DNA of 64,000 nt from the NCBI GenBank assembly GCA_963841915.1, contig CAWJEN010000006.1, forward strand, positions 1,280,001-1,344,000, in the 5' to 3' direction. Each line of letters begins with the position of its first letter. Positions within the stretch are counted from its first letter, which is position 1. The DNA comes from an uncultured Planctomycetota bacterium. GTDB taxonomy: Bacteria; Planctomycetota; Phycisphaerae; Tepidisphaerales; Tepidisphaeraceae. Below are positions 24,306 to 60,231 of the stretch, in pieces. The translations under genes and the position numbers were made by a program. The notes under the pieces are model-generated. The model did not search any database and had not been told where the DNA came from. It saw only the letters and a list, made by a program, of their open reading frames with translations.

Positions 24306-24620
24306 ATTGGGGCTGTTCTTGCGAGTAATGAGGCTGTTCTCCGCGCATTGGGGCTGTTCTTGCGCATTGGGGCTGTTCTTGCGCAATGGGGCTGTTCTTG
24401 GGCGCAATGGGGCTGTTCTTGGGCGCAATGGGGCTGTTCTTGGCGCGATGGGGCTGTTCTTCGGCGCGATGAGGCTGTTCTTGGGCGCAATGGGGCTGTT
24501 CTTCGGCGCGATGAGGCTGTTCTTCGGCGCAATGGGGCTGATTCGCGGGGTGATACGGCTGATCGACCTGCGGCTGGGGCTGTTTGAGGTCAACTGCCGG
24601 CTGTTGCCCGGCCAATCCAT
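24306..24620. repeat. Tandem array of ~21-bp units, consensus ATGGGGCTGTTCTTSGGCGCR
   Basis: 11 near-identical GGCTGTTCT-containing units (19-22 bp) plus about 4 degenerate units that keep the 21-bp register. Confidence 0.92.
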
Positions 24621-24807
24621 GCGCGTTGGGAACGCAGTCTGGCTGCGAGATGTTTGGAAGCATCTAGCGACCGCCTTTGTCATACAGATTTGCTTCGTCG
24701 CGTCGAGTACTGGCTTTGACTGACCCGTCATTGTCGGCCTGATTCTGCTATCGCCGAGCCACATGCGTTCGGTCGCGTCGACTCGATGCCCTTACCGTCA
24801 AGAGAAC

Positions 24808-25608
24808 ATGGCGACGCTCCACACGAAGAAGGCGGGCCAGTGGGTGAAGTCGACTGCCTGGAAGCAGCTCGAACGCGAGCTGATCGTCGGCCTCGTCGCA
24901 CTCATGCTCGTGATCTTCCTGTCCGGCTTCGCCGTCGGCTTCGGCCGTGGCTCTTCGCTCTGGGCGTGGATCCTGGCCATGGTGGGTGTACTGGTGGTCA
25001 CCCTGCTCATCGCATGGTTGATGAAGCGTGCCGAGCGCCGGTGGGAAGTGCCTCAACAGGAACGCATCCGCCGCCTCCGCGGGGCACACGCCGAAGCGCT
25101 CGTCGCGTACGTGCTCCAGACGCAACTCATCGCCGAACCCAAGGGCCTGAACGGCACCGGCGGCTGGCACATCTGGTGCAACGTCCCGCTGGGCGACCTC
25201 GGCGACGCCGACGTCGTCGTGATCGGGCCGGGCGGCTGTTTCGTCGTCAGCGTCAAGAGCCACCTCGGCCTGCTCACGGTCGGCGGCAACGCCCTGTCGC
25301 TGAACAACCGCCCCACGTCCGACCCATGGGCCGCCGACGCCGTCAAGCAGGCCCTCCGCCTCCGCGACCGCATCAACGCGGCGGACGGCCAAGCCCCACC
25401 CTTCGTCCGCGGCGTCCTGTGTGTTCCTCATGCCGCGCTGGAACCAAACGTCACGCCCCTCTGGTGCGGCAACACTCTGGTCTGCAATGAGCGGACGCTG
25501 ATCGAAACGCTCGAGAGTCACGGCAACCCAATCGACCGATCAATCGTCCTCCGCCTCAAGGCCGCCGTCGCCACACTGAGCAACACGCCCGAGGTCAACG
25601 GCAAGTAG
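24808..25608 (+). CDS. Membrane-anchored NERD (nuclease-related domain) protein
   Basis: Two N-terminal TM helices; GAHAEALV...NVPLGDLGDADVVVIGPGGCFVVSVKS...QALRL. Confidence 0.8.
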   Translation: MATLHTKKAGQWVKSTAWKQLERELIVGLVALMLVIFLSGFAVGFGRGSSLWAWILAMVGVLVVTLLIAWLMKRAERRWEVPQQERIRRLRGAHAEALVAYVLQTQLIAEPKGLNGTGGWHIWCNVPLGDLGDADVVVIGPGGCFVVSVKSHLGLLTVGGNALSLNNRPTSDPWAADAVKQALRLRDRINAADGQAPPFVRGVLCVPHAALEPNVTPLWCGNTLVCNERTLIETLESHGNPIDRSIVLRLKAAVATLSNTPEVNGK

Positions 25609-25731
25609 AGCAGCCAGTCGACGTGACAAGCGGGAAACGAACGATGCCCCCGTTTCCGCGCCCAGTGGGACGCCCCTTCGCCGTATGAGACCTTGCATTG
25701 CCTGACGCAACAATGCATCATCCTGGCCGCT

Positions 25732-26340
25732 ATGGGGTCGGCCGTCGACGATGTATCGATCTCAGGCACGACGGCGACATCCGACGCGTTGACGAGTGCC
25801 TTGGCCGACGCACACGCCGACTCGGCCGCACGCGAACGCCTGTTCGACCTCGCGGCCGAACGGATGCGGACGATGGCACGAACACACCTGAATCGCTTTC
25901 CCCGCCTCCGCCGGTGGTCGCGGAGCGACGACGTGATGCAGGAGGGCATCGTCCGCCTGCTGGCGGCGTTGGAGCAGTCGTTTCCGCGGACGCCGGTTCA
26001 CTTTTATCGCCTGTTTGCCCTGCAGCTTCGGCGGCTTCTTGTTGATCTGCACCGAACCTCGTACGGGCCGGAGGGTCGACATCGGCATCACGATTCACCG
26101 AGTGACGACGCTCGCACGGTCGATGCGGTCTGCACGCGTGATCCAGCCGAAGGGCTCGACGTCGAGGCCCTCCACGAAGCTGTTGATCGACTACCGGACG
26201 AGCTTCGGCAACTCGTCGAGCTTCACTCTTACAGCGGCCTGACGGGAACGGAAACGGCCGCGTTGCTGGGCATCTCGGACCGCCACTTCTGGCGACAGTG
26301 GGGCGAAATCAAAGCCCGACTGGCCAACGACCTCTGCTGA
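25732..26340 (+). CDS. ECF-type RNA polymerase sigma factor (planctomycete kinase-associated type)
   Basis: Region 2 RWSRSDDVMQEGIVRL...LRRLLVDLHR; region 4 LHEAVDRLPDELRQLVELHSYSGLTGTETAALLGIS. Confidence 0.85.
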   Translation: MGSAVDDVSISGTTATSDALTSALADAHADSAARERLFDLAAERMRTMARTHLNRFPRLRRWSRSDDVMQEGIVRLLAALEQSFPRTPVHFYRLFALQLRRLLVDLHRTSYGPEGRHRHHDSPSDDARTVDAVCTRDPAEGLDVEALHEAVDRLPDELRQLVELHSYSGLTGTETAALLGISDRHFWRQWGEIKARLANDLC

Positions 26341-26397
26341 GGAGAAATTTGATGGTTCGTGTCAGTCCGACGGCTCGGCTGCCGCAGACGTGGGGGA

Positions 26398-27510
26398 ATG
26401 GACGGTATTCCCGACGACATCCTCGACAGTTACGAGGCGTACGGCTGTCGCGTCAATGCGATCGAGGTCGACGAGCTCTTTGACCGCTACGCGACGGCCG
26501 GATTTCTGTACCCGGCGAAGCTCGCACGGTTGAAGCCGTTTCTGCCGATCATCAAGAAGAATTGGGAGACGGCACAACGCGCAGGAGAAGACCTCATGTG
26601 GACGAGCGTCTTCAGCGACGCGTCGTCCTGGGGGACCGTGACATCATGGAGAAGTAGCGGGCAAGGTTGGTTGTCTCAGCATCTCGTGTCGACGGGTGAG
26701 GTCGGCGGTTCGGCGGCGGTTCAACTCTCGGGGCAAGCCGTCAAAATCCGTCGCGCGGAAGGTGCGGCCGAGCAAAATTGGTTCCGCCCGACGAACCGAT
26801 TCCCGATGAAGGTCTTCGGCTCGATGGCCCAGAAGCTGGGCCCGGACGTCGCCAGTTGTGCCGTCCACACCCTCCTGTCGATCGACGCCGGGTCCATATT
26901 GAAGGACGAGTCAGGGAAAATCGTCGTCGAGGCGTCGGATGATGCCGATGCGGTGGCGGGCGTCGCCGAGAAGACGCGCGGCTCTGTCTTCGTGCAGGCC
27001 GAGGAGTTGAAACAAGACCTGCGGCTCGAAGCCGTCGACGCCCTCTACCAAAGTGTCGGCCTGAGCCGGACGCGAACCCCCATCCTGGCCCGCCGACGTA
27101 GTGACGGTCGACCCCTCGGTGTTGCCCTGGCGTACCGCGGGCCGCTCGGGCTCAACTTCTCGTTCTTGGAAAATCGGTGCGATGTGCTCGTCGCCCCGGA
27201 CCTGGACGACGCCGCCCGGCGGGCTGTTGCGTTGGCGTTGCTGCGGGAAGCCGCCGCCCGTCTACGCGTCTTTCGAGCCGGGGGCTTTCCCCGCCGTCAC
27301 GGACCCACGTACGGCCGCACTTCTCGCACAGGCGGGCGGAGTCGAGGTCGTCCGTGAGTATGCCCAGAGTATCTGGCTGCGTGACGGATTCATCGGTTGG
27401 TACCGACACGTCGAGGGTTTCTACGACCGCATCCGCAAAGCCGGTCGCGACGTGGACTGGCCGGCCGCAAGGCCGTCGAACCCGCCGATCTCGCGGCGAC
27501 TGCACCATGA
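26398..27510 (+). CDS. Hypothetical enzyme-like protein, possibly acyltransferase fold (frameshift ~27260; end approximate)
   Basis: Continuous coding signal MDGIPDD...GLNFSFLENRCD, continuing in another frame as YASFEPGAF...GWYRHVEGFY. Confidence 0.6.
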
Positions 27511-28331
27511 ACAACGCGAAGAACAGCTCGACATACTTGATGCACGACCCGCGCGAGGCGGCCCGTCTGGCCGGAAAGGTCGACGCGGCCGACTGGGTCG
27601 ACCAGCACGTGGCGCAGCTCCTCGACCGCACCGCGGGCGACGTTCTTGACGTGGGGTGCGGCCCCGGTGTTCTGGCGGCCGAGGCGGCACGCCGTTTGAA
27701 CGATGACGGTCACGTCACGGGCGTCGACCTTCACGCGGACCGCTTCGCGAGCAGTTCGGCCGGCATGATGGGATCGGGCCGATTGCCGCAGAACCTCACC
27801 CTGCGCGTCGGTAAAGCCGAAGACCTTCCTTTCGAAGACGGCACGTTCGGCCTGGCGTGGTGCCGGTTCTTGCTGGAGTACCTGCCCGACAAGCCGCGAG
27901 CTCTGGCCGAGATGGTCCGGGTTCTGAGGCCGGGCGGTCGCCTGCTGTTGCAGGACCTGGACGGGCAATTGCTCTGGCACGATCCGCCAGACCCGGAGCT
28001 CGAAGCGACCCTGAGCCGTGTTATGCCGGCCCTTGCCCGAGGCGGATTCGATCCGTTCGTAGGTCGCAAGCTCCGCGGGCTCGCGCTGGCCGCGGGGCTG
28101 GAGGTCGAGCGGGTCGAGGTTGCCCCGTACCACCTCTACGCAGGCCGCATTGACGAGATCAACGATCGGCTGTGGCAGGCGAAACTGGCGATCGCGCAGC
28201 CGGCCGTCGCCGCCGTCATTGGCGACAAAGAGTCCGAGCGGCTGTGTGCGCGATTTATGGACTATCTGAGGGACGACGCGACACTGACGTATTCGGTGCT
28301 CTTTACAGTGCTGGCACGCAAACCCGCATGA
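27507..28331 (+). CDS. Class I SAM-dependent methyltransferase
   Basis: VLDVGCGPG, VTGVD, AEDLPFEDGTF, LAEMVRVLRPGG, DPFVGRKL. Confidence 0.9.
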   Translation: MNNAKNSSTYLMHDPREAARLAGKVDAADWVDQHVAQLLDRTAGDVLDVGCGPGVLAAEAARRLNDDGHVTGVDLHADRFASSSAGMMGSGRLPQNLTLRVGKAEDLPFEDGTFGLAWCRFLLEYLPDKPRALAEMVRVLRPGGRLLLQDLDGQLLWHDPPDPELEATLSRVMPALARGGFDPFVGRKLRGLALAAGLEVERVEVAPYHLYAGRIDEINDRLWQAKLAIAQPAVAAVIGDKESERLCARFMDYLRDDATLTYSVLFTVLARKPA

Positions 28332-28376
28332 CCTACGCCGGAGGCGGCTGTCGGTCGATTGGAGAAAGGAGGAAGC

Positions 28377-30748
28377 ATGAGTAGCCTTGTCGGTCGCGTC
28401 CTTTCGCCCGGTGACGACTCGGAAGTGCTCCGCCGCCTGACGCGGTGGCACCTCGCCGACAGCCGCGACCCGCCAGAGGACGTTTTTCAGGACCGCCCGG
28501 GAACTCGTCGAACCCCTTCGGCGTCGCATGGACCGACTGAGGCAGGTCTCGAGCGGCGATCGACGTCCTGGACGATGCCGAGGCGATGGGGAAGACGCCT
28601 GCGTCGGTCGGGCTGTACCGCATCGTTTGTCGTGTAGGCGAAGGTGCCAACGGCGTCGTTTATGAGGCGATCCACAGCGTCACGAGCAAGCGCGTGGCCT
28701 TGAAGCTGCTCGTCGGCCTGCGGCACGCTTCCGACCACGCCCGCCGACGCTTCGCCCGCGAAGCGGAGTTAGCCAGCCAGCTCGACCACCCGAACACGGC
28801 CACCGTGTTCGACGCAGGCGACGTCGACGGCGTGCCTTTCCTGGCAATGGCTTTTATCGACGGCGAGCCCTTGAGCAGAGACGAGCGTGGTGCAGGGTCC
28901 AGCCGGTCTTCATCTTCGCGGGAGACGGTTGCTCTCTTCATTCAAGCCTGTCGCGGGGTCGAGCACGCTCACGCCAAGGGCTTGATCCATCGCGACCTTG
29001 AAGCCGACGAACATCCTCGTCGGCCGGAACGGGCGACCCGTCATCGTCGACTTCGGCTTGGCGAAACAGGCGAATGAGACTACGTCGTCCCTCAGCCTTG
29101 ATGCACGGTTCGAGGCACAGTCACCTTTGCCAGCCCGGAGCAGTGCCGCGACGAATCAGGCGACGTGCGGAGCAACATCTATTCGCTGGGCGTCGTGCTG
29201 TTCGGCCTGCTTGTACCGAACGCGCACCCGCACAACCTCGACGGCACGGAATGGCAGTTCACGAGCGGATCGCCTTCGAACGACGCCCGGCTTCTGCGGC
29301 ATGTCGATCGCAGGATCGACCGCGACCTTGATGCCGTCGTCGCCAAGGCATCGAACGCGAGCCGAACCGCAGGTATGCGACAACATCGGCATTGATCGAC
29401 GACCTCGAACGCTGGCTGAATGGCCGGCCGGTACAGGCGAGGCCGGCGTCTCTCGGATACGTCGCCCGGAAGTGGATCGGCCGACATCGGGGGCGCATGG
29501 CCGTCATCGCCACCGTTGCCCTGCTGATCGTCACCGTCGCGGCTGCGGCGTCATGGCGTGTGGTCTGCACAACGGGACGGCGAGCTGTTCGGGCGGCTGC
29601 CGAGACGGCCGAAGCCGTGAACGCGTTTCTTGAAGACCTGCTATCCGCCGCCGATCCATTTGGCGGGGGGACACACGACTTGACCGTCGCCGAGGTACTT
29701 GCCGCTGCGGACGAGCGTGTCGCAGCCGAGTTCGCGGACCGGCCGCTGATCGAGGCCCGGCTACGTCGCGTGATCGGACGAACCCTCCTCGAACTCGACC
29801 GACCCGCCGAAGCCGAACCGCACCTGCACGGGCCGTCGAGCTTCTCACACGATACGTCGGTCCGGACGATGCCCGGACCCTCGAAGCCCAACTGGCCCTC
29901 TGCCGCTTCCTTTTGGCGACATGGCAGAACGACGAAGCGGAGCCAATCCTTCGACGTTGTTCGCCGGTCGACAAACCAACTCGGCACAGTGCCGCCAACA
30001 GACCTTCGACGCACGCCGACGCCTTTATCTCATGTTAAGTGAGACCGGCCAGACCGCCGAAGCCGCGGAGGGACTGGAAGCACTTTATAACGACGTCACA
30101 CTCGTGAGGCCTGAGTCCCATCCGCAATTTATCTGGTCGCTGGGGGCGATCGCCATCTGTCAAAGCACGCACGGGAGCTTGGGAGGCTGCACTACCGGTT
30201 GCACGCCGGACGCTGAAGCTCGCAGAATTGCACGTCGGCCCTGATCATGCAGGCACGTTGAGTTGGGTGATGAACGTCGCGGAAATGGGGGGAAAGGGCC
30301 AAACGGGCGATTTTGATGAAGCCATCCGGCTGCACCGAGAAAATGTCGCCCGCCGGACTGGCACGTGTGGCGAGAACCACAATGCGACATGGTTCGGCCG
30401 ACAAAACCTCGCGTAATCGTTGTTGCTTCGTGGTGCTCCTAGCGACGTCGAGGAGGCGGCAAACATCCTGCAGGACCTTCGTCGACGCCAGCCGGCCGAA
30501 CCGACTGGCTGCCGACCCGGCTGGATGCGGACCTGATGCTGGTCGAGGCCCTGCACACGCTGGGCCGCGACGCCGAAGCCGAATCCGTTCTGGCCGAAAA
30601 CGAAGCATGGGCAGAACAGATCCTGACGCTCGACCGCCCGTCCGTCGCCTGGCTCGTCCGATGGTCCCGCCACCTCGCTACCGCAAAGGCGACCACACCC
30701 GATGGCACATCGCCGCATCAGCCGCTGTCGCAGGTTCGTACGGCCTAG
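28377..30748 (+). CDS. Ser/Thr protein kinase with TM helix and TPR region (multiple frameshifts)
   Basis: AAGGAGG RBS; VGEGANGVVY, VALK, RFARE, IHRDL/KPTNIL, VDFGLAK, IYSLGVVL, DDLERWLNGRPV, TM, FLEDLLSAADP. Confidence 0.8.
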
Positions 30749-30892
30749 ACGCACCTCAGACTCAGCGGTTTCATCGCACCCACGTGTTCGAATCAAGGAA
30801 CCGAAGATTTTTGGCATAGGGCGACATCGGCTCCCGCAAGACCACGTAGCGGCGTCGCGACGGGCGGCCTGCCCAACCACCCACGGGAGCAC

Positions 30893-31488
30893 ATCCAGTT
30901 CCATCGCTTCAACCTCATCCTCGGCGGCCTCGCCCTCTCAGTCGCCGGCACGGCCTCCGCCGACGTCCTGGGCGGCCCGGTCGATCCCACCAACGGCCAC
31001 AGCTACTATCTCCTGGAGCAGGACACTTGGACCAACAGCGAAGCCTTTGCTGTCTGGGCGGCCACCTTGTGACGATGATGACGCGGAGGAGGATGAGTAG
31101 GTCTACGACACCTTCGCCAGCTTCGGCAACGTCGATCGGAACCTCTGATAGGTTTCAACGATGTGGCGGACGAAGGCACCTTCGTCTGGTCAGTGGTGAG
31201 ACGCCCGGTTACACCAATTGGGCAATCAACAAACCGGACGGCCCGGACGGTGCAGACTACGGGCACATCATAAGTCCGGCTGGCAGCTCTCCCGGCCAGG
31301 TGTGGGATGACCTTTCCGACGTCATTGAAGACGGGCGGAGCCCAATCAACCCAAATCATGGTGTTGTCGAGGTAGTCCCCGAGCCCGCCGCCGCCGGCCT
31401 GCTGGGTGCGGGACTCCTCGTCACGCTCCTCCGCCGGCGTCACACTCCGAATCTGAGCTGCGCTCTCGCGATGCCTCTCCGTGCATAA
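30893..31488 (+). CDS. C-type lectin domain PEP-CTERM protein (frameshifted; apparent ATC start)
   Basis: Signal QFHRFNLILGGLALSVAGTASA, NGHSYYLL..TWTNSEA, LGGHLVT, YTNWA..KPD, WDD, VPEPAAAGLLGAGLLVTLLRRR. Confidence 0.72.
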
Positions 31489-31570
31489 GTCTGGAAGACC
31501 GTTCGCCGAGGCAAACGCGGAATAACTACTAACTCTTCAGACATCCTTCGAGCTCAACACCCTAAATCAG

Positions 31571-32075
31571 ATGATCTTTCCACGCTTGATTTTTGCTGCC
31601 GTTCTCACGCCTTTCCTCTTGCTTACGGTGGGGACTTGGTCAACGCAATGTCGCCTCAACAGCCTGCGTTGGCGGAGGCGGCGGCGACGAGTTTCGATGG
31701 GTCATTCCTGAGGGCGGTCGGATCACCGGCGTGCAGCCGATCGGCGACAAGCGAATAGATGGCCTACGTATCTACTATGTCGATAAGAACGGTGATAAGC
31801 ATCACACCGGCTGGAACGACGATGAGAATGGAGGTGGAATGTGGCTTGAGTATTTCGACATCCCGACCGGTACCTTCCTAGTCGGCATCTCGGGACGCAC
31901 CGGAAGAAGGGTTGATCAACTTAAGTTTCACCTCAACAACGGAGACGCGAGCATTAGCTACGGCGGGAACGGAGGAAATGCATTCGAATTGATGACCAAT
32001 AGGAAAGAAGTCGTTGGCTTCCACGGCCGCGAGGGCGACGAAATTGATTGCATCGGATTAACGTACATCGAATAA
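31571..32075 (+). CDS. Jacalin-like lectin domain protein, probably exported (frameshift after signal peptide)
   Basis: GGGGGDEF, IDGL, LVGISGRTG..VDQLKF, YGGNGG, VVGFHGREG..IDCIG; signal MIFPRLIFAAVLTPFLLL in an upstream frame; lower GC. Confidence 0.78.
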
Positions 32076-32127
32076 CGAAGCGGAAACGTGTAAGGGGGAA
32101 GAAACGGGGACATCGCTCGTGTCTCGT

Positions 32128-34724: not shown

Positions 34725-34752
34725 TCAACACAGCGGCGAGGTCGGCCGATAG
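34725..34752 (+). promoter_or_regulatory. Sigma-28-like promoter candidate
   Basis: TCAA-N16-GCCGATAG upstream of the 34835 gene. Confidence 0.35.
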
Positions 34753-34834
34753 AGGGGCCAGACGGGCAGGTCGTGGCCAGGGTGGCGGCGTCAGATTCCC
34801 GTTCTTCACCCAAAGACCCCTTGAAACAACAGCC

Positions 34835-35545: not shown

Positions 35546-35581
35546 ACACAGCCCGCCCGGCCAATGCCGGGCGGGCTGTGT
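35546..35581. terminator. Intrinsic terminator between convergent genes
   Basis: ACACAGCCCGCCCGGC-CAAT-GCCGGGCGGGCTGTGT: 16-bp stem. Confidence 0.82.
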
Positions 35582-46587: not shown

Positions 46588-47213
46588 CGATCGGCGACAG
46601 GTGATGCATGGCAGCGGGTGGAGTTCGGTGGTTTCAACAACAACAACGCGTGTGGTTCGCGTTCCGCCTCCTTTTAAACAAGTCGCAATCATACAACGCG
46701 CAGGGGTTTGCTGCGGGAGCTGACGCAATGTTTGGGCTGTGTCGGGCGAGAGTATGGGCTGGCCCGGCGCACGCAGCCCGCCAAGCACCTGATTTGCCGT
46801 GCGGCCTTTCCAGTGAGCTTGTTGAAATGCTTCAGGTGCGTTGCCTTCTGGATGACAATCGACTCATCAGCACCATCATTTTGCCTGCACGTCAGCCGAC
46901 CGCGACGTCGCCATCAAGCTCGACCCGCCGATGTTCCTCATGCAGGGCACCGACGCCGCATCCCCTGCCCTCGCCTGGCCGTTCCGCACCATCAACGCAA
47001 CGCTTGCCGACACGGGCGACTTCTCCGATCGCCACGACGACCAGCTGTACCCCACCGTGGTCTGCGTCGGCTTCCGTTGCTGGTGCACGACGTCGCTCGT
47101 TTCCGCGTCCATGGCCCACACGTCGGCGGAGGGTCGGCGTCACTTGAACGCGGGCCGCGGACCGGGCCAGTTCCGATACAAAGGGCGGGTTTCCAGACAG
47201 ACAACGATCCCAG

Positions 47214-47472
47214 GGAATCCCTGGAAACTTTCCCGGATACCTTTGGAAGTTCCAAAGGCATGTTTCCAACTTCAAAGGCATGTTTAGAAGTTCCCAGGGC
47301 ATGTTTGGAAGTTCCCCGGGGCATGTTTCCAAGACGTAAGGGCATGTTTCCAAAGCTCAAGGGCATCTTTGAAAGCCGTCAGGGCATGTTTTGAAGTTAA
47401 GGGCATGACGTCAGAGGCTCAAGGGCATCTTTGGAAGTCTTACGGGCATCCCAGAACCGTTCAGGGGCATGC
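47214..47472. repeat. Degenerate tandem array of ~21-bp period with conserved GGCAT(G/C)TTT core
   Basis: GGCAT at 47257, 47277, 47298, 47320, 47341, 47362, 47383, 47402, 47424, 47445, 47466, plus two decayed units on the left. Confidence 0.88.
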
Positions 47473-50400: not shown

Positions 50401-50634
50401 GCGGAGCTGAACGGCCCGCAGGTTCTCCAGCAGCTCCTCAACGGGCAGCCGAAGCACGTTGGCGTAGCCGCTGTCGGGCGTGTCGAACATCCGCCCCTGC
50501 GCCGCCTCCACGCCCACCTTCGGTGCCGCCACCGTGAACAGCGACTCACCCACCTCCTGACCCGTGAACAGGTCGCACACCGCGTTGATCGCGTCCTGCT
50601 GGTAGTCGAGATTCGGCTCGAACTGCAACTTCAT
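47461..50634 (-). CDS. res: Type III restriction endonuclease Res subunit (multiple frameshifts; true 3' end probably nearer 47600)
   Basis: [64 protein letters not shown]...YFVAETKG. Confidence 0.93.
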
Positions 50635-50684
50635 GATAATTCCCGTTCTACCAGAGCTCGCAAAGTAGTTGCAACTTGACCACC

Positions 50685-51218
50685 TTACCTGCCGGATTCG
50701 TCTCGCTTTGGGAACAACCAGCGGGCGACGACGACGAACAGACCGACAACCGTAGCGGTGGTTTGAACCAGTAAGGCCACCATCACCGTGTCAGACACCT
50801 CCAGATCGAGATGCCACTGTGTGTGGTCACTTTTCCAACGCACCGGGGGTATTGACGCAATGATCAGAATGATGGCGACGAAAATGAGCCAGTTCTTGAC
50901 GAAGTTGTAGAGCTTCGGGACATACTCTTTGCGAAGCTCAAAATCGTGCTGCACCGCCTTGAGCACTTGGCCACGCCGCTCGGCCAGGTACTCGTCTTGC
51001 GACTTCTGTAAAAAACCCTGCACTTCATCTTCGGCGCCAGGTCTCGGGACGGCCGCCAGCGGCTCGTCGATGATCTCCTCGAAGTCGTCGTACGAATCGT
51101 GGATGGGAACGATGACCTGGTCGAGCCACGGGTCTTCAGGAGGCGGCACATCGTCAACGTCGCCCGGGACATCCGGCACAGCGTCAGGTCCGGGTTGAGG
51201 TACTTTCGAATCGTCCAT
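50685..51218 (-). CDS. Two-TM membrane protein with acidic N-terminus; candidate toxin paired with Panacea antitoxin
   Basis: 11 bp downstream of the Panacea gene; ELRKEY..TM..VSDTVMVALLVQTTATVVGLFVVVARWLFP. Confidence 0.7.
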   Translation of the reverse strand: MDDSKVPQPGPDAVPDVPGDVDDVPPPEDPWLDQVIVPIHDSYDDFEEIIDEPLAAVPRPGAEDEVQGFLQKSQDEYLAERRGQVLKAVQHDFELRKEYVPKLYNFVKNWLIFVAIILIIASIPPVRWKSDHTQWHLDLEVSDTVMVALLVQTTATVVGLFVVVARWLFPKRDESGR

Positions 51219-51229
51219 CTACTCCGCAT

Positions 51230-51767
51230 CTACGCCGTCGGCTTCAAGCTCGCCTCTTCCTTAGCTTGACGGCTCTCGAAGTTGACGCGAGCCTTCTGCT
51301 CGTAGTACTGCCGGATCATGTCGTTGTCGATGACAAGCGGCGTTCCGTGACGGGCGCTGTGGCGCAGGTTTCTTGCCACGGCGAACCCTCTTGATGCGTC
51401 AGGCTGATGAACTCGCCCCGGAGTACTTCCGGTAGTTGTGCCATACTGCGGCCAGCAACTTCTTCTGCCGATGATCGCCTTCAAAAGCCGGCACAATCCT
51501 GCCGGCAGCGGGCCCGATGTCATCACGGGCTCGATCCGTAATCGGACTTCTCCCGTACTTGCGAAATGTGCGGTACAAGCTCCGGATGACAGGCCCATGC
51601 TTCCACGCCTCGACGGGTTCCTCCAGCAGCGGATCCTGAAGAAGTCCGAGGTGCCAACCGTGGGCGATGTAGACCAGCTTAATGACGTCGAGCATCGTCA
51701 GCGACCGACCCTCGCGGTCGGCCGCGTAGAGAAACCAGTTCGCTAATTCAAGGCTCCGTCGCACCAT
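51230..51767 (-). CDS. Panacea / SocA-like (DUF4065) antitoxin (frameshifted ~51400)
   Basis: LANWFL, LTMLDVIKLVYIAHGWHL, EAWKHGPVIRSLYRTFRKYG, C-terminal IDNDMIRQYY. Confidence 0.88.
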
Positions 51768-51827
51768 GGCCGCGTCTCCGTGTGAGCCTAGGCGACAGGT
51801 TGTCCACCATCCGCCGCGTGTGCTCGA

Positions 51828-53825
51828 TCAGAGGCTCAGCACGCGCACGTCGTTGGTCTCGCCGTCCGCCCGCTTCTCGCGGGCGAGGGCTTGGCGGAGG
51901 TTTTCGACAAGGTTCACCTTCGCCGCGTCGCTCCCGGCAAAGGCGGCGTCCAGCAGGAGCACGGTGACGGTGCCGGCGGGCTGCCACTTACCGATCAGGT
52001 CGGCCAAGCCCGTGGCCAGCGTCTCGCCGCTTTGCAGGGTGATCGTCGTGTCATCGAAGGAAGCGACCACTGAGCCGCCGCCCGCAACGAACGTGCGCCG
52101 TCCGTCGATCTGACGCTCGTCAACGCGGCCGTCGAGGGGGAGGCCGAGGTTGACGAGCGCCGCCCCACAAGAGGTCCTCGGGCGAGCGGTCGGGCTTGAC
52201 GGCGTCGACGTGGTCCTCGATCAGCCGCTGGCCGTCGCCGGGTTGAAGTTCGTCGGTGGTCGGCGGGTCCCACGCCTTGACGTTGGCCGAGTCGAGCTTG
52301 AAGACGCGGAAGCCGGTGTCGAGCGGCGTGTCCCGGCCGATCAACGTTCCCTCGTGCTCCTTCTTGATCTTCGCCCCCGCCCGCCGCAGACGTTCCTTCG
52401 TGAGGTCGGCGATGGTCGGGTATTCCTCGCGTCCGGTCTTCTCGGGGAGCTGCACGAGCATGTACCGACGGTTCCCGCCGTCAGCGGCATTCTGCTCCAT
52501 CACCGCGTGGCCCGTGGTGCCCGAGCCGGCGAAGAAGTCGGACTGGCGCATTCTTATCATCGTCCTTGACCGCGTTGATGCAATCAACCACAGTCCACAG
52601 ACTCTTTGGAAAGTCAAAGGGCGAATCTGGCACTAAGTCCTTGACGACCTTGGTGCCGTAGACGTTTGCGTCGTATCGCGTTCCAATCCAAACGGTCTTT
52701 TGCGTCGCGAAGTTCTTACCAATTTCTATCGAAAGAAGGTCATCCTCCGACTTCACGCGGAGAAGGTACAATCTCCTCGACAGACTGTCGGGCATATCGC
52801 CACTTCCGTTCAACGCCGTTCCTATCGATTGGGTAGATATGCGTAACGCCATCGACTACTTCATTCGATTTTGGGTGGTTCGCGTCCGGCTCAACTTTCC
52901 CAAACCCAATGATCTCACCGTTCTTGACCAATATCGGATAAAAGCAGTTTTTTGCATCGCCGCGTTCAGACTCCGTTCCCCAGTTTCGGAAACTAGACCA
53001 CGAGATTTCGTCCGAGCTAAGAAGCCTCGGCGATATGCGTCGCTCACCTCGCCGATAAACGAAGTATGCGTATTCGTGCGTCGCAGAGAAATTTGTGCCC
53101 TGCACTCCTCGCGGGTTATGAACTACGGTGACACACGAATGCTCGTAACCACCTTCGTCAAAGACGTCTTTCAGTAGCGCCCGAGATTAACTTGCTCGTT
53201 GTCATCGATCGCACAAATGAGCACGCCGTCCTCGGTAAGAAGCTCACGCGCAAGAAGCAGCCGCGCGTACATCATGTTCAACCATGTGGTGTGATGCCTT
53301 CCGCTTCTCTTCGGATTGGATACGAGTGATGCCTCACCTTCTCGCTGCCCGGTAGCTTCCAGATATGACTTCAGGTTGTCGCTGTAGTTATTCGGATAAA
53401 GCAGGTCGTTTCCAGTGTTATAGGGCGGGTCGATATACACTATCTTGACACGCCCGGCGTAGCTTCTTCTGTAGCAGCTTCAGCACTTCAAGATTGTCGC
53501 CCTCAATAAAGACATTCTTCGCCCGATCCCAATTTACCGACTCATCATGTGCCGGTCGTAGCGATCCAGCTGAAGGAGTCAACGCGAGCCTACGGGATGC
53601 GCTCTTACCATGCCAACTCAAGCCGAAGCCCTCTCGCCCATGCTCGCTGACAGGACTACCGATAAGATCGGCGAGAACCTTCGTGTCAATAACGGGCCCA
53701 TCGCTACTCTCGGACAGCACACCAGGGAAAAACTCCGCAAGCTTTCTGCGGAACTCTGCCTGCAGCTCCGCGCTTCTCGCCAAGCCAGAAGCACCATCTA
53801 CTTTCTCAATATGATCGTCCATCAT
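51828..53825 (-). CDS. mod: Type III RM methyltransferase Mod subunit (multiple frameshifts)
   Basis: FGLSWHGK, FIEGDNLEVLKLLQ, YIDPPYNTG, FDFPK, DFFAGSGTTGHAV, DTGFRVFKL. Confidence 0.92.
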
Positions 53826-53832
53826 GACTGTC

Positions 53833-54321
53833 TCAAGGAAGCGTGTGCGCCAGAAGTTTGAGCGTGCGCTCGATTACCGTGTTCCTCTCGCCCCCTGCCT
53901 GCTGACTGCCACCGTAGTTCGTTCGCAGATAGGTCTGTGCGATGTTCGCAGCTGAAACTGGCGAGTTAACCTTCGTACCCGGGGGAGTGAGCACGTCGGC
54001 ACCAGACGTCGCAAGTAGCTGAATCATACCTGTCTTCACTCCATCCCAGACGCCATCTCTTGCCTCAGCACTGTGCTTGTCCATGTCTGTTCCGAGACTT
54101 GTCGCTTGCCTAATCAGGGCAAGCTGGTTTGGTTGCTGCCGTATGAACCATATCGCGAGAGGAATCAATGAACGATGGTGGCCATTTAAGTTGTGCCACC
54201 CCAGCCCGCGATCAACGAGTGCTTGGGCGTCTGGAACGTTCTGTTGCGCCAGTCTATCGATGATCAAATGGGTTGCATCGACGAGGGCGTTGTAACGAGG
54301 GTCTTGAGTTAGGTCTGCCAT
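53833..54321 (-). CDS. Hypothetical protein (low-GC orphan inside RM operon)
   Basis: 162-aa ORF tightly packed between DUF4391 and mod. Confidence 0.75.
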   Translation of the reverse strand: MADLTQDPRYNALVDATHLIIDRLAQQNVPDAQALVDRGLGWHNLNGHHRSLIPLAIWFIRQQPNQLALIRQATSLGTDMDKHSAEARDGVWDGVKTGMIQLLATSGADVLTPPGTKVNSPVSAANIAQTYLRTNYGGSQQAGGERNTVIERTLKLLAHTLP

Positions 54322-54342
54322 GTTGGTGTGCCATTTACAAAG

Positions 54343-55053
54343 CTACACGGCGTCGGCGGCAGCGCGACGCTGGCGGCGGGCCTCCTGGAGGCGTTCGTTG
54401 AGCTCGGCCCGCCGACCCGCCTGCCGCTCCCGCTTCGCGGCGGCGGTCAATCTAGCGATCTCCTTGTCCAACGCAACTACGCGTGTCAGTGCATCGCGAC
54501 GCTCGGCCGACGCTTCGGGTGTGCCGGCCCCGTCGCGTGCGGGCACTCGCCCCGTCGCGTGCCACGCGATCACGCCGAGTACCGCGTCGGCCCATCGCCG
54601 GTGCAGATCGCCCAGCGACGTTGCCCGGTCGACCGCCAGCAGCGCGACGACCTCCGGCGGCAGGGACTCGGGCACCTCGCACGCGAGAACCTCCCCGAGG
54701 CCGGGCTTGATGCTGAGGGTCACGGCTTCGGGATGATCGACGTGGTCGACCGCCAGGAGCAGCGGCGCGGGCACCACGCGGTGCAGCAGCGCGAGCAACC
54801 GGGGCGGCGGCGCGGGCGGTCCGTCACGCGTGGTGAGTCTTGCGACGACCAGAGAGGGCGTGCCGTCAGCGGGTAGTCCGGTGGTGCCGGCGTTGAGGGT
54901 GGCATGCCAGAGGAGCGACTCGACCCGTTCGTTGACGAGGCGTCGGTCGGCCGCCTTGTCGAGTTGGTCGACCAGCGCGGTTTTGGGGACGCGCTCCCGC
55001 TGCACCGCCGCGGCGGGCAGGCCGAGGCCGTCGAGCAGGTCACCGGTCTTCAA
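54343..55053 (-). CDS. DUF4391 family protein
   Basis: LGLP..RVPK, LLHRVVPAPLLL, C-terminal coiled coil EIARLTAAAKRERQAGRRAELN; position between helicase and mod. Confidence 0.8.
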   Translation of the reverse strand: MKTGDLLDGLGLPAAAVQRERVPKTALVDQLDKAADRRLVNERVESLLWHATLNAGTTGLPADGTPSLVVARLTTRDGPPAPPPRLLALLHRVVPAPLLLAVDHVDHPEAVTLSIKPGLGEVLACEVPESLPPEVVALLAVDRATSLGDLHRRWADAVLGVIAWHATGRVPARDGAGTPEASAERRDALTRVVALDKEIARLTAAAKRERQAGRRAELNERLQEARRQRRAAADAV

Positions 55054-58000
55054 GCCGCGGCCTCCCCGCCCGCGTGATTCGCCTCCGCGTCGCGGTGGTC
55101 GGGGGGCAACACGGCGAGGTAGGCCAGGACCTCGAAGTCGCCGCCGGGGCGGGCGTCTCGTCGGCCGGTGTGAGCGGACGCCGCGGCCAGGGCGGCGGCG
55201 TTGAACAGCCCCTTGGCCCGTTGCTCGTCGCTCTTGCCGCGGACGGCAGCGGTGGCGGTCGCCAGGGCGCGGGTCACGGGCGTCATGTCACGGCCCTTCT
55301 TCGTTAGCTTCTCGAAGGCGGCCACGGCGGCGGGGTCGACGACGTCGCCGCGGCGGACGCGAGCCGCAGCACGTCGAAGATGGCGCGGGTGCGCGTGTGG
55401 GGGCTCAGGACGGTCGTGCCGTCGAAGGAGACGTGAACGGCGTAGTGGGGGGCGAGCGGGTAGTCGGCCGTGTGATGCGTTTCATCCGGGTCCTCGTCAC
55501 TTCGGAGGCAGAAGACGAAGCCGGGCGGGACGTGCTCGGTGGCGAAGCAGGCGGCAAAGGTGCCGGGCGGCTCTGCGGCGAGGCGATCGGGGTTGGCCCG
55601 CTCGAAATCGCCGAGGTCGACGCGGAAGTCGCTCAGCGTGAGGTCGGCGATGCTCACGCCCGCTGAGAGGTCTTCGAGGTCCACGACGCTGTCCTGAAGC
55701 TTGAGGAGCTGTCGTCGGCGATACGGCAGGTCGTTCATCGCGTTGTCGGTCGTGGTGCTGAAGAGGTCTTCTTCGCCGGTTGCCGAGACGTCGAGCAGGG
55801 TCATGCGGCCCGAGACGCGGGATTCGAGGTCGAGGTACTGCTCGATCTGCATGTTGGGCCAGAAGTTGGCCAGCTGGATCTGCGTGTTGGGGCTGCCCAG
55901 ACGGTCGATGCGGCCGAACCGCTGGATGATGCGGACAGGGTTCCAGTGGATGTCGTAGTTGACGAGCCAGTCGCAGTCTTGGAGGTTCTGCCCCTCGCTG
56001 ACGCAGTCGGTGGCGATGAGCAGGTCGAGTTCCCCCTCGCCGGCGTCCTCGGGCGAGCGCTGCTTGGCTCGTGGGGCGAAGGCGGCGAGGATGTCGGCCT
56101 GCTTGGTGCGGCCCTGTCCGAGGGTGGAGCGGTTGTCGTTGCCGCCGGTCAGCAGGCCGGTCTCGACGCCCTGCTGCTTCGCCCAGGCGTGCAAGTGGTC
56201 GTAGAGGTAGACGGCCGTTTCGGCGAAGGCGGTAAAGACGATGACCTTGCGGTTGGGCTTGCCGTCGACGTGGTTGATGGGCTCGTCGTACTTGCGCTGG
56301 AGCATCGCCGCAGGTCGGCGAGTTTGGCGTCGCGGGCAGGTGCGACCTTTTGTGCGGCCGCAAGGAGACGGCGTAGGCGGTCACGATCATCCTTGAGCTC
56401 GCCGGCCCCACTTGATGAGGTCCATGTCCTTCAGGAGGACCTTGACGCCCTTGCCGACGGCAAGCTGCTCGACGAGCGGGTCGTCGAGTTCGAGGTCGGC
56501 GATGTCGGGCGAGTCGACATCCTCCTCAGCGTTGTGGCTTTCGATCTTCGAGAGCAAGGCCTCGACGTCGGCGAGCTGGCGGCCCAAGGTGAGCTGGAAG
56601 CTGTGGACGCTGCTTTCAAGCCGTTTGAGGACATTCACCCGCATCAGCGAGGTGAGAGAGGTTTCGCGGTCGAGCTGGTTCCAGATCGTGCCGCGGCTGG
56701 TCTCGGTGGCGTATTTCTTCTCATAATCGTCCACCTTGCCGGGCAGCAGGTATTTAAGAGGAGCGAACGCGGCGAGGTTGAGCAGCGTGATGTCGCGGTT
56801 GAGCTCCACGACGCTCGCCATACCTCCCTGGGCGGTGGGTACGGCGTCGAGCTCGGGCCTGCGGTTGATGGGCGGCAGGCGGTCGGGGAACTCGCCGGTC
56901 TCGACGGTGCCGTAGTAGCGCTCGACGTGCCGGCGACTGCGGGCAATGGTGAGCAGGTCGAGGAGCTGGAAGTAGCTGAACCCGAGCATGTCGACGAGCT
57001 TGCCCGGCGTGCGTTCGGCATCGTCGAGGGCGAGCCAGCCGTTGAACTGCTGCTGGGCGTGTCGCGTCGCCGCCTTGATGCTGGGGATGCCCTCGGCGGC
57101 GAGCGCGTCATCTTCACCGCTGACGGCGAACGCGACCTGATTGCGCAGGTCGGCGAGGCGGTTGTTGACCGGCGTCGCACTGAGCATCAGCACCCGCGTC
57201 TTGACGCCCGCCTTGACCACGTCGTCGAGCAGGTGGTCGTATCGGGTGGGCTGGCCCTTGCGCGGCGACTTCTTGTTGCGGAAGTTGTGGGACTCGTCGA
57301 TGACAACAAGGTCGTAGTTGGACCAGTTGAGGTGCTTGAGGTCGATGCCGCCCGACTCACCGCGGTTGCGGGAGAGGTCGGTGTGGTGCAGGACCGTGTA
57401 GTTGAAGCGATCGTCGAGCAGGCTGTTTCGGCGGTCATTGAGCGTGTGGATCGTCCAGTTCTCACGCAACCGTTTGGGGCACAGGACCATCACGCGATCA
57501 TTCCGCAGCTCGTGGTACTTGATGACCGCGAGCGCTTCGAAGGTCTTTCCGAGGCCGACGCTGTCAGCGAGGATGCATCCACCGTGTCGGGCAAGCTTGT
57601 CGCACACGCCGACGACGCCGTCCCGCTGGAAGCGGTAGAGCATCTGCCAGACCTTTGTATTTTTGATACCGGTTCCTGCGTCGACAATGCGGTCCTCGTC
57701 GAGGCCGCCGTCGCCCGTGGCGAGTAGGTGGTGCAGAAACAGCGCATAAACGTTGCGGGGCGGGCGCGGCGATACGAGCGACGCCGCCGTGTCGGCCAGC
57801 GCCGCGGCGGCGGTCGGGGCCGGAGGGTGTGCGAACCACTGTTCCTCGAACCACGCCGCATACTGCGCTGCGGCTTCGCCTTCAAATGCCTGCACCATGC
57901 CGAGCGGGTTACCGCGAGCGAGGCCGAGGCCGGCGGTCGAAAGCGAGAGGCTACCGATGATTGCAGACTGAGCGATACCTTCCGAGTCGCGGATGATGAC

Positions 58001-58321
58001 TGTGCCCTGCGGGATGGCCGTTGCCGTACGCCGGACTTCGACGCCGCCGCTGCGAAGCCAAGCGGATAGCCGGAGCGAAAGCCGCTGCCCGGAGAGCGTG
58101 GATCTCAAGGCTTGATCCCTCTCATCCCCCAGCAGCGCAAGGTCCGAGTCTTCGGGAGGCAGCAGGAGTCTTACCCGCTTTACCGATGTCATCGCCTCAA
58201 TCGCGTCGAGACCGAACACCGAGGCGGACGCTGTGATAATGTCAACGCTCCCCGCTGCCGGCAGCAACTCGCTGAGCCGTTTAGCAACCGTGTCGTCGCC
58301 GCTATTTTTTAGTAGCCTCAC
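55050..58321 (-). CDS. SNF2-family helicase with N-terminal PLD-like domain (frameshifts ~56390-56310 and ~55330)
   Basis: LYRFQRDG, ILADSVGLGKT, VVIDESHNFRN, MLSATPVNN, LLIATDCVSEGQNLQD, NYDIHWNPVRIIQRFGRIDRLGS. Confidence 0.9.
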
Positions 58322-58390
58322 TATGGGCAGCGACTGTATCGGCAGCGGCTTGCAATGCACATCGCCAAGTGCGTCCACCGCATATGGATT

Positions 58391-58465
58391 GTCGCTTGAG
58401 CCGCCGTTGAACCGTGGGTGGGGGCGGCGGCGGGACCGTCTGCAGGAGGTCGCGTCCCTGCAGGC
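58391..58465 (+). repeat. Imperfect direct repeat of 59189-59254 (3' part of GIY-YIG gene)
   Basis: GTCGCTTGAGCCGCCGTTGAACCG[9-bp insert]GCGGCGGCGGGACCGTCTGCAGGAGGTCGCGTCCCTGCAGGC vs GTCGCTGGAGCCGCCGTTGAACCGGCGGCGGGGGGACCGTCTGCAGGAAGTCGGGTCCCTTCAGGC. Confidence 0.88.
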
Positions 58466-58526
58466 AAGTTGTTTCGAGTACGGGGACCGAAAAGCGTCAA
58501 CGGGCCCTGCCCGTACACTCGCATCG

Positions 58527-59318
58527 ATGAGTTATCAGCGGGAACTAACGTGGCGGGAAGCGATCCAGCGGGTGCTGCGGGAAGCCGGCGAGCCGATGCA
58601 CTACGCAGACGTCGGCGACGAGATCGCCAAGCAGCAGCTGCGGACCAACCTAGGGGCAACGCCGGCGAGTACGGTGACAGCAGTCGTTACGACGGACGTC
58701 AAAACACACGGCACCGCATCGACGTTCCAGCGATTCGGGCCGGGGATGATCGGCTTGCGGGAGATCGTCGAGCAATCGACGCCGGAGGCAGCGGCGGAAG
58801 CGACCGCCGATGACACGACCACCGCAGAGCGGGCCGGCATCGTCCAGGCCCTCGGCATGTTCTGGCGACGCGACCGCGTCGAGTGGAAGGCGACGCCTTC
58901 GCTGATGGGACAGCAGCAGACCGGCAGCACGCCCGTTAACTTCGCCGACCAACGCGGCGTCTACCTCCTTCACGACGGCCGCGAGACGGTCTACGTCGGC
59001 CGCAGCGTTGATCGGCCCCTCGGCCGGCGGCTCTTCGAGCACACGATCGATCGGCTCAACGGGCGGTGGGACCGTTTCTCCTGGTTCGGCCTGCTCGCCG
59101 TCGACGAGGACGGGAGCCTGCACGAAGTCGCGAACGACTGCTTCGGCGACGCACTGATTATCGAGGCGATGGAGGCAGTCCTGATCGAGTCGCTGGAGCC
59201 GCCGTTGAACCGGCGGCGGGGGGACCGTCTGCAGGAAGTCGGGTCCCTTCAGGCGGCCGATCCCGGGTACGAGCGGCGGCAACGCGAGCAGCTTGTCATG
59301 TCGCTGTTGCAGCGGTAA
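58527..59318 (+). CDS. HARE-type winged HTH fused to GIY-YIG nuclease
   Basis: LTWREAIQRVLREAGEPMHYADV...GATPASTV; GVYLLH...VYVGRS, RRLFEH, EAVLIESLEPPLN. Confidence 0.82.
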   Translation: MSYQRELTWREAIQRVLREAGEPMHYADVGDEIAKQQLRTNLGATPASTVTAVVTTDVKTHGTASTFQRFGPGMIGLREIVEQSTPEAAAEATADDTTTAERAGIVQALGMFWRRDRVEWKATPSLMGQQQTGSTPVNFADQRGVYLLHDGRETVYVGRSVDRPLGRRLFEHTIDRLNGRWDRFSWFGLLAVDEDGSLHEVANDCFGDALIIEAMEAVLIESLEPPLNRRRGDRLQEVGSLQAADPGYERRQREQLVMSLLQR

Positions 59319-59357
59319 CAGCGTGAGGTGAGGCCGCGGAAAAATCTTCACGTCGCC

Positions 59358-59385
59358 TGAAGGCTTGCTGCACGTCAGCCGTTAT
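59358..59385 (+). promoter_or_regulatory. Sigma-28-like promoter candidate
   Basis: TGAA-N16-GCCGTTAT upstream of the 59458 gene. Confidence 0.3.
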
Positions 59386-59457
59386 CTCGGCTGTCGGCGG
59401 TTTCAGCGGCAACGTGGCCGTGCTCCCGACGCATCCGTCTACGAAAAGCAGGAAGGC

Positions 59458-60174
59458 ATCCCTTCGAAAGACGTCGTCCCGACGACCGACCGGGAGCTTC
59501 GCGACTTCGCGGAAAACTTCTACAACGTGTGTGCCGCCAACGCAGCGGCCTTCAATCTCGCCGAGCCCGTCATGACCCAGCTCGACCTGCTTTCCAGCGG
59601 CTACGTCAGCAAGCTCACCGCCGCCGTCGACCCGCAAACCCGCGGCGTCCGCACCGTTTACGAGAAGGACCAAGCCCGCAAGGCGCTCGTCACGCTGATC
59701 CGGAAGGTCGCCAAACAGATCAACGGCCTCATGGATGTAACGAACGACCAGCGACAGGCGCTCGGCTTGAACATCGCCGACACGACCCCGACCCGAATCG
59801 ATCCGCCGACGACGGCCCCCTACGTCCGCGTGACGGGTGTGAAGAACGGCGAGATCTTCTTCGAGCTGCGCCAGAACGGCGACCTGCGGGCCAAGCCGAC
59901 GAACGTCGCCGATGCGCTCGTCTTCACCTACGCCGGCGACGCCAGGCCCACGAGCATCAACCAGTGGAACTACGCGATGACGACGGGCCGCACGAACCTG
60001 TCGATGCCCTTTCCCGAAGGTGCCGGCGGCCAGACGCTTTGGATCACTGCATTCTGGACCAATGCCAAGGGGCAGAGCGGCCCGAGCAGCGAGCCGGTCA
60101 GCGTGAACCTGCCGGCCATCAGCGCCCGGCCGTCGCAGATCGACCAGCAGTCGAATCTGCGGATCGCGGCGTGA
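59458..60174 (+). CDS. Uncharacterised protein, paralogue of 34835-35524 (apparent ATC start)
   Basis: (I/M)PSKDVVPT aligns with MPSRTNYLPT; shared motifs throughout; AGGAAGG just upstream. Confidence 0.8.
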   Translation: MPSKDVVPTTDRELRDFAENFYNVCAANAAAFNLAEPVMTQLDLLSSGYVSKLTAAVDPQTRGVRTVYEKDQARKALVTLIRKVAKQINGLMDVTNDQRQALGLNIADTTPTRIDPPTTAPYVRVTGVKNGEIFFELRQNGDLRAKPTNVADALVFTYAGDARPTSINQWNYAMTTGRTNLSMPFPEGAGGQTLWITAFWTNAKGQSGPSSEPVSVNLPAISARPSQIDQQSNLRIAA

Positions 60175-60197
60175 GTGTTTGACGACCCAAAACAAAG

Positions 60198-60231
60198 AAC
60201 CGCCCCGCGAGCGTTGGCTCGCGGGGCGGTT
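60198..60231. terminator. Intrinsic terminator between convergent genes
   Basis: AACCGCCCCGCGAGC-GTTG-GCTCGCGGGGCGGTT: 15-bp stem, with A-rich left flank giving a U-tract for ahcY. Confidence 0.85.

Follow-up and report, generated by a model that had tools for sequence, protein, structure and literature searches.

What holds an array of 21-bp period and one kind of gene together at the two ends of a module, when the genes lying between them change? The question is raised by a window of 64,000 nucleotides (the whole stretch of DNA that was analysed; G000:C6:1280001-1344000, G000 being the genome under study and C2 and C5 other contigs of the same metagenome assembly) from an uncultured Planctomycetota bacterium of the Tepidisphaeraceae (GCA_963841915.1, contig CAWJEN010000006.1). 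The initial annotation had described a twice-repeated cassette, each copy opening with an array, carrying restriction genes and closing with a paralogous gene and a hairpin, and had proposed that array and gene delimit an undescribed type of defence hotspot. The frame of this description proved sound: the modules open with different 21-bp arrays, the closing genes A and B are homologous (27% identity over 226 amino acids (aa), E 8e-27), each is followed by a hairpin, and a scan of 74 window open reading frames (ORFs), chosen from 178 of at least 100 aa, turned up neither an integrase nor a transposase. Array and gene almost certainly form one real unit, defined in the window by the following features.

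24308..24554, no strand: array 1, about 12 units of 21-bp period, non-coding (Tandem Repeats Finder score 312); retained in C2
34835..35524, plus strand: gene A, helical bundle plus Fn3 family protein, 229 aa, ending in -LAA (family homology, structure)
35546..35581, plus strand: hairpin with a perfect 16-bp stem, terminator-like, following gene A
47214..47470, no strand: array 2, about 12 units of 21-bp period, consensus unrelated to array 1; same type in the C2, G002 and G003 orthologues
59458..60174, plus strand: gene B, helical bundle plus Fn3 family protein, 238 aa, ATC start, ending in -IAA (family homology, structure)
60198..60231, no strand: hairpin with a perfect 15-bp stem, between gene B and the convergent ahcY

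Linkage of the array and the gene

Arrays were detected by their autocorrelation at period 21 minus that at other multiples of three, with a threshold of 0.25 for the count in G000 and of 0.22 for the small elements described below. G000 contains 19 arrays of period 21 at the former threshold, against 0-2 for periods 15, 18, 24 and 27. A hidden Markov model search detected 12 family loci in G000 besides two copies on C2, two of the 12 being fragments. An array is present at most 600 bp upstream of the gene in five of these loci (0.04 under the null) and at most 13 kb upstream in ten, for which the null gave a mean of 0.77 and a maximum of 5 in 20,000 random draws; downstream of the same 12 loci arrays were found at none within 600 bp and at one within 13 kb. 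The enrichment of arrays near homologues, which the initial annotation had wished to see tested, exceeds chance on the upstream side.

The relatives were sampled as 60 regions of six relatives, picked from the better matches, each reaching about 17 kb upstream of the gene and 2 kb beyond it. Out of 62 distinct genes in this sample, 42 have an array less than 600 bp upstream and 10 have one at 2.5-12.6 kb, while a control of 400 kb, made up of the 20-kb downstream stretches of 20 relatives' loci, contained a single array. In four genomes that belong to another class (39-52% GC), the array is within -42 to 168 bp of the gene for 21 of 21 fetched genes. In named records (WOR-3, Stahlbacteria, Elusimicrobia, Brocadiia, Planctomycetota, unclassified), an array is present at all 12 loci with enough flank, out of 14; one duplicates a counted locus. 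Kin are not independent in any of these linkage counts, but the pattern spans phyla. The empty state with the array directly beside the gene, which the initial annotation had wished to see compared between strains, exists and is the usual arrangement.

Orphan 21-bp arrays were observed in G000 at C3 162342, at C5 553710, 866803 and 946813, and at C6 651663 (L013, L015-L018). For three orphan arrays loss of the gene is suggested, since relatives keep a family gene near homologous flanking genes.

Properties of the 21-bp array

The arrays have a median length of 11 units. Unit spacing is exactly 21 in 636 of 720 cases, a figure which, the arrays having been detected by the same period, describes tightness only. 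The consensus is unrelated between loci (mean best match 9.98, against 9.82 for shuffled sequences), and array similarity climbs only above about 50% protein identity. The unit consensus is an imperfect palindrome; in 35 of 73 arrays its symmetry is significant at p<0.05, and in 70 it exceeds the null median. Because period, length and symmetry are kept without the sequence, these comparisons suggest that the array may be a binding platform read by shape or spacing.

Several other readings of the array were rejected. Coding heptad repeats do not hold as a general reading, as codon-phase conservation is seen in just 3 of 73 arrays and 25 of 73 are without an open sense frame; in some arrays a frame does stay open as far as the start of the gene. 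Strand-specific RNA hairpins are ruled out by mismatches without strand bias, G-T (352) equalling A-C (359). Folding as a single strand beats that of column-shuffled arrays on both strands (median z -2.6, from 36 of the 73 arrays). Unit conservation has only a slight excess at a sub-period of 10.5 bp, which was likewise dismissed. Guide arrays of the CRISPR or TIGR type do not fit either, the units being degenerate 21-bp copies of each other with no unique spacers; the arrays had no match in Rfam. In 8 of 32 low-GC loci (L133, L137, L139, L148, L178, L184 and others), against 1.2 expected, the array is immediately preceded by a strong Shine-Dalgarno-like motif, with no consistent reading frame.

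The helical-Fn3 protein family

Among 61 relatives, 24 have matches to the family, as many as 20 in one genome, and so have 11 of 201 genomes sampled across the phylum; at E<=0.001 the family has 6358 representatives at 50% clustering. The protein had no meaningful match in Pfam, PADLOC, NCBIfam or PDB sequences, and the Atlas returned 'hypothetical' clusters only, one of them with fn3 in 18% of its members. In the AlphaFold model (pLDDT 86) a helical N-domain, a three-helix bundle, precedes a beta-sandwich, which is an Fn3 domain (residues 112-226, Z 11.7, root-mean-square deviation 2.0, 91 aligned). The fold search with the N-domain gave generic helical bundles only, with a best Z of 9.0, and winged-helix Rep and ParR/ParB-type families were not listed among its matches; a viral fold search with the protein gave only generic Fn3 matches. 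The homodimer prediction scored 0.12. Lysine or arginine is conserved at positions 62, 70, 74, 82, 99, 144, 146, 178 and 204, and the median net charge is +5. The C-terminus is -AA in 129 of 149 members, against 13 of 388 background proteins; we take this tail to be a ClpX degron.

Degenerate repeat tracts of 8-9 bp follow two family genes (L006 after 4498, L007 after 1522), and resemble tracts found beside GxxExxY genes.

Small rolling-circle elements carrying the family gene

Many distant homologues are encoded on contigs of 4.3-5.9 kb (P0167-P0212). Three of eight metagenome loci retrieved (L187-L189, 4803-5237 bp) carry a family gene, a small Arg-rich protein and a Rep_1 initiator, PF01446 being above cut-off in all three (E 1e-16 to 1e-18). 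Only one of the three, L187, has a 55-bp terminal repeat, a possible signature of circularity; it also has a CopG-type ribbon-helix-helix (RHH) gene; L189 has a GNAT gene and ends in a 28-bp tandem array. The elements variably carry an RHH, a GNAT or a lipoprotein-like gene, and L188 and L189 have a C-rich strand; the other genes scanned on them had no Pfam match. The element Rep has weak matches (25-27%) to four records labelled Inovirus sp. and none in IMG/VR, and the family protein was found in none of the plasmid, phage and IMG/VR collections searched. These elements are apparently an uncatalogued rolling-circle group.

The element proteins are homologous over their full length to the chromosomal family (HHalign probability 100, E 3e-56), and in each of L187-L189 the highest period-21 score falls 270-300 bp upstream of the gene. 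Partner genes are shared as well. An element-type GNAT lies directly downstream of the gene at 17 fetched loci and three in G000, and divergently just beyond the array at eight loci, all eight of which are loaded with cargo. Homologues of the element small protein follow the gene in three chromosomal loci, and the family genes of two of these loci group with the element proteins (support 97). Neither partner occurs in the 400-kb control, and the GNAT is absent from the loci of the other class. A larger quick tree, unrooted, places the small-contig proteins mostly on a branch of their own. Rep was found neither at the G000 or fetched chromosomal loci nor, with one query, in 61 genomes. From these comparisons chromosomal units and small elements very probably share ancestry, and transfer from element to host would be the likelier direction.

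Layout of the two modules

The further features of the window are as follows.

22898..23954, minus strand: GNAT-family partner gene (Pfam GNAT), frameshifted, ending in -LAA; divergent, just beyond array 1; the GNAT of rolling-circle element L189 is a homologue
24763..25608, plus strand: NERD nuclease-domain membrane protein, module-1 cargo (Pfam/PADLOC match)
25693..32075, plus strand: non-defence cargo, consisting of ECF sigma, an unknown protein, SAM (S-adenosylmethionine) methyltransferase, Ser/Thr kinase (broken), PEP-CTERM protein and jacalin (library scans)
32220-32860, minus strand: putative endonuclease downstream of the type II-like methyltransferase (motif by eye only)
32904-34531, minus strand: type II-like (Eco57I-like) methyltransferase, frameshifted (PADLOC MTase_II, E 4e-62)
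34725..34752, plus strand: promoter-like bipartite motif of gene A (motif search)
47085..47213, no strand: conserved flank preceding array 2, also at C5, at G002 L090 and partly at G003 L089
47530..47577, plus strand: remnant; its sequence matches the 3' end of Mrr, the gene adjoining the array in G002 L090
47749-50640, minus strand: type III Res, module-2 cargo (Pfam/PADLOC)
within 47749..58057, minus strand: SocA/Panacea, type III Mod (to 53825), DUF4391 and SNF2 helicase (Pfam/PADLOC)
58391..58465 (plus strand) and 59189-59254: the two copies of an imperfect direct repeat of 70 bp that flank the HARE-HTH gene; a single hybrid copy in C2
58527..59318, plus strand: HARE-HTH plus putative GIY-YIG nuclease (HARE-HTH E 4e-13; GIY-YIG by motif only)
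59358-59385, plus strand: promoter-like motif of gene B (motif search)
59391-59427, plus strand: 37-bp leader segment of gene B, in C2 perfectly repeated on either side of 3.1 kb of cargo

Array 1 has one additional degenerate unit at 24576. The stretch from 35.6 to 47 kb (desaturase, RND pump, dockerin protein) is outside both modules. As to module 1, the NERD and type II-like methyltransferase genes of the initial annotation were matched, but NERD is on the plus strand, the bulk of the cargo (25.7-32.1 kb) is not defence, and the putative endonuclease had no match in any library scanned. In module 2 the type III Res and Mod, DUF4391 and SNF2 genes were matched, and the GIY-YIG domain had no match in the libraries scanned. 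The promoter-like motif said to be shared by both closing genes, which we take to be sigma-28-like, is found in 18 of 61 upstream regions against a background of 8.6%, but also in 11 of 61 on the opposite strand, and is suggestive only. The start of gene B (59458-59460) is ATC in both haplotypes and ATG in orthologues, either a rare start or a recent silencing.

Many ORFs of the window are frameshifted, densely so in 42595-46498 and 47749-58057, where every gene of the module-2 defence cargo is affected. As the homologous copies on C2 and C5 are intact, these frameshifts are likely to be uncorrected long-read errors in strain-specific DNA. A tRNA-Arg gene is found at 20532-20605, 3.7 kb to the left of array 1. 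An island integrated at a tRNA was rejected, since the 3' end of tRNA-Arg is not repeated at the module ends and no array lies within 2.6 kb of a tRNA; an integron or other integrated island was discarded as well, neither an integrase (74 ORFs scanned) nor att repeats (tRNA-Arg 3' end) being found.

Turnover of cargo between array and gene

Contig C2 is most likely the allele of a second strain. Its ends match the window almost fully and its middle at about 94%; both arrays and both genes are kept, and both cargos differ. In module 1 the boundary of the swap is the 3' end of the NERD gene (25633-25657), and the non-defence block 25693..32075 is missing from C2. In module 2 the defence cargo is replaced in C2 by PD-T4-3, DS11, DUF3800, a type IIG/ISP enzyme, a PLD-helicase and PDC-S11. 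The orthologues of gene B in G002 and G003 have two different type I systems as cargo, so that four versions of this slot hold four different restriction or defence loads. Across these 8-14 kb of differing cargo the array type of gene B is preserved, with similarities of 0.49-0.58 against 0.457 for the 99th percentile of unrelated pairs. The proposal of the initial annotation that array and gene are fixed boundaries, between which cargo turns over, is borne out by these haplotypes and orthologous slots, and such turnover does not require an integrase.

The edges of the cargo carry three signatures, namely the 37-bp leader repeat of C2, the 70-bp repeat around the HARE-HTH gene with its hybrid copy in C2, and the Mrr 3' remnant, which is likely to be a fossil of earlier cargo; they would fit homology-driven replacement. 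An 8-kb stretch of module-1 cargo that starts within array 1 is found again on C5, where two other arrays precede it and identity is patchy across NERD; the non-defence block is duplicated there at C5 498711-490779. The locus in question (G000 C5 487938-499403, L014) has an array-2-like followed by an array-1-like array and a mosaic of the cargo of both module-1 alleles, with no family gene; NERD is common to the window, C2, this second C5 locus and G004 L099. We regard exchange of cargo by host recombination as the probable reading of these junctions.

Distribution of cargo and defence genes

Cargo was mapped on a FastTree tree of 60 chromosomal genes with arrays, the choice of loci favouring relatives of genes A and B and one G000 fragment locus with housekeeping genes in its gap being left out. 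The 16 cargo loci need 3 changes on this tree, against a shuffled mean of 14.2, and none of 500 shuffles was as low. All 12 loci of the clade including gene B are loaded (support 98), three loaded loci form the clade including gene A (support 100), and one loaded case stands alone. With loading limited to two clades and one lone case, modules 1 and 2 appear on this tree to have arisen separately, not by the duplication of one cassette.

Clear defence cargo is present at eight of the 16 loci (seven at E<1e-40; kinase matches uncounted), four of which are one orthologous slot; other cargo consists of ECF-kinase, ImuB/DnaE2, metabolic or unknown genes. Empty units have no excess of defence genes (2 of 79 neighbours, against 2 of 110 distant genes), and were rejected as general residents of defence islands. 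The basic object is the array-gene unit; the 'defence hotspot' of the initial annotation describes the loaded clade and not the family. In other genera, the genes in the first 2 kb past the array are for the most part accessory: a G000 homologue exists for 6 of 58, compared with 29 of 79 downstream and some 35% at distant positions.

Large unannotated genes in loaded slots (L001:1916-6718, L099:3660-6578, L069:4105-6282, L002:14493-15494) are candidate new defence genes. Cas9 and leucine-rich repeat (LRR) or LRR-Roc-COR genes adjoin arrays or genes of the unit elsewhere (L066:13372-16611; L050, L060, L064, L097).

Comparison with known systems

With plasmids of the pC194 type (Rep_1) and inoviruses the small elements share the Rep_1 HUH initiator, the RHH gene and possible circular signature of L187, and a size of about 4.8 kb; they differ in the helical-Fn3 protein, the Arg-rich proteins and the array, which are unmatched in the plasmid, phage and IMG/VR collections. 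A packaging ATPase, as in single-stranded DNA (ssDNA) phages, was not noticed on them. Unlike Rep_1 replicons, the chromosomal copies are without Rep. P1 iterons and parC/ParR resemble the unit in their phased repeats, two-helical-turn spacing and position upstream of the cognate gene. In the present case, however, the units are degenerate palindromes, 12-20 unrelated arrays occur per chromosome, and the protein as modelled would be neither winged-helix nor RHH.

Type III toxin-antitoxin systems (ToxIN, CptIN, TenpIN) also have a tandem array upstream of a cognate gene. The unit described here departs from them in its period of 21 and in lacking strand bias, a ToxN-like fold, a match in Rfam or PADLOC/Pfam and, as a rule, a terminator ahead of the gene. 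Integrons and REP/RAYT have palindromic repeats tied to gene capture or to one cognate gene; at the chromosomal loci, by contrast, there is no tyrosine recombinase or HUH enzyme, and the repeats are in tandem at one end and not between cassettes.

Variable hotspots and defence islands without an integrase are renewed by homologous recombination. The loaded modules are like them in their conserved flanks, interchangeable defence cargo and lack of an integrase in the window modules, and close genomes here do have conserved flanks around differing accessory content, the mark of a hotspot renewed by recombination. They are unlike them in that the flanks are the halves of a multi-copy array-gene unit, not core genes, and that the slot recurs at several places within one genome. 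Variable hotspots with defence genes are described in ANME-1 archaea (PMC13385816). In the open full-text literature no description of the array-gene unit was found, subscription papers and supplements lying outside the scope.

Origin and function of the unit

We incline, with some reserve, to an origin of the unit as the binding array and coating protein of a rolling-circle element, Rep-less in chromosomes and holding recombination-exchanged cargo in two clades. The array and its cognate coating protein would have been retained and multiplied in chromosomes without Rep. Somewhat more probably than not, the protein would bind the array; it could do so cooperatively at two-helical-turn spacing, or as hairpins on ssDNA, and would be turned over by a ClpX-type protease through its -AA tail. 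The cargo slot of the two loaded clades would go back to an insertion that separated array from promoter; the retained ends of this slot, the array side and the gene leader, could anchor exchange by RecA or microhomology-driven replacement.

Some observations weigh against this reading. Ten of the 62 genes in relatives are without an array above threshold (five have a near-threshold signal), and about 10 of 20 G000 arrays are without a family gene. Reading frames stay open through arrays slightly more often than in the shuffled null, whichever strand is read (1.1-1.4 against 1.0). Some genes that are 72% identical carry unrelated arrays, which fits recognition by shape better than by sequence. 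The arrays of the three elements are weak (scores 0.11, 0.16 and 0.20, under the threshold of 0.22), the fold searches matched no known DNA-binding fold for the protein, the trees are unrooted quick or FastTree runs which give no direction of transfer, and C2 and C5, coming from a metagenome assembly, may mix strains.

Part of the evidence would suit a host regulatory module, in which a short-lived nucleoid or stress protein is expressed from a promoter whose upstream element is the array, elements acquired the unit from hosts, and cargo gathers passively where insertions are tolerated. Intact reading frames, the -AA tails (absent from the three element proteins), the promoter-like motif, chromosomal arrays more regular than those of elements, the failure to find Rep in 61 genomes and the lack of a defence excess at empty units all agree with it. 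Its patchy distribution (24 of 61 relatives, 11 of 201 genomes in the phylum), the 1-20 matches per genome at unrelated sites and the element GNAT and small-protein partners travelling with the unit speak against it, and we consider such a module possible though unlikely. Simple coincidence, with arrays, paralogues and defence genes as independent residents of a variable region, could account for orphan arrays and array-less genes; the permutation and downstream controls contradict it, as does the array type of gene B kept across its differing cargo, and practically no weight is left to it.

If instead the unit were an active mover, the protein would nucleate on the array and coat or package adjacent ssDNA made by a helper Rep, cargo being transferred as by a miniature transducing agent or satellite. 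The coat-like design (basic helical domain plus Fn3), the Arg-rich partners on elements, the clade loaded in 12 of 12 loci at several genomic sites, the concentration of accessory genes at the array end of the unit alone (a G000 homologue exists for 6 of 58, against 29 of 79 downstream) and the 8-kb block that starts inside array 1 and recurs at another array locus could all be so explained. Rep, a nick site and a packaging ATPase were not seen at chromosomal loci, however, and ordinary homology explains the junctions, so that we hold active movement to be improbable. A wider conjecture, which we think doubtful, is that unrecognised tiny rolling-circle ssDNA elements have a helical-Fn3 coat protein on a 21-nt-phased hairpin array, that several phyla domesticated 5-20 coat-plus-signal copies, and that the loaded clade packages and moves defence cargo between strains or intercepts related elements. 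Least probable of the functional readings, by a little, is a toxin-antitoxin, addiction or defence module with the GNAT as toxin and the degron-tagged protein or a type III-like array RNA as antitoxin. The GNAT directly downstream at 17 fetched and three G000 loci, a degron-like tail suited to an unstable antitoxin and an array preceding its cognate gene would agree with this, but the GNAT is present at only about one third of loci and at none in the other class, the GNATs themselves end in -AA, the strand bias of an RNA is missing, many arrays run up to the ribosome-binding site without an intervening terminator, and Rfam and PADLOC gave no match.

Implications

A widespread and unnamed protein family emerges, with a cognate cis-array in which period, length and symmetry are kept and sequence is not. 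Many natural protein-array pairs are thereby available for direct tests of binding and orthogonality. The link of the unit to seemingly uncatalogued rolling-circle elements points to a possible new group of ssDNA viruses or plasmids. In Planctomycetota, the loaded clade marks slots in which known defence systems stand beside unannotated genes, and offers a handle for finding anti-phage genes.

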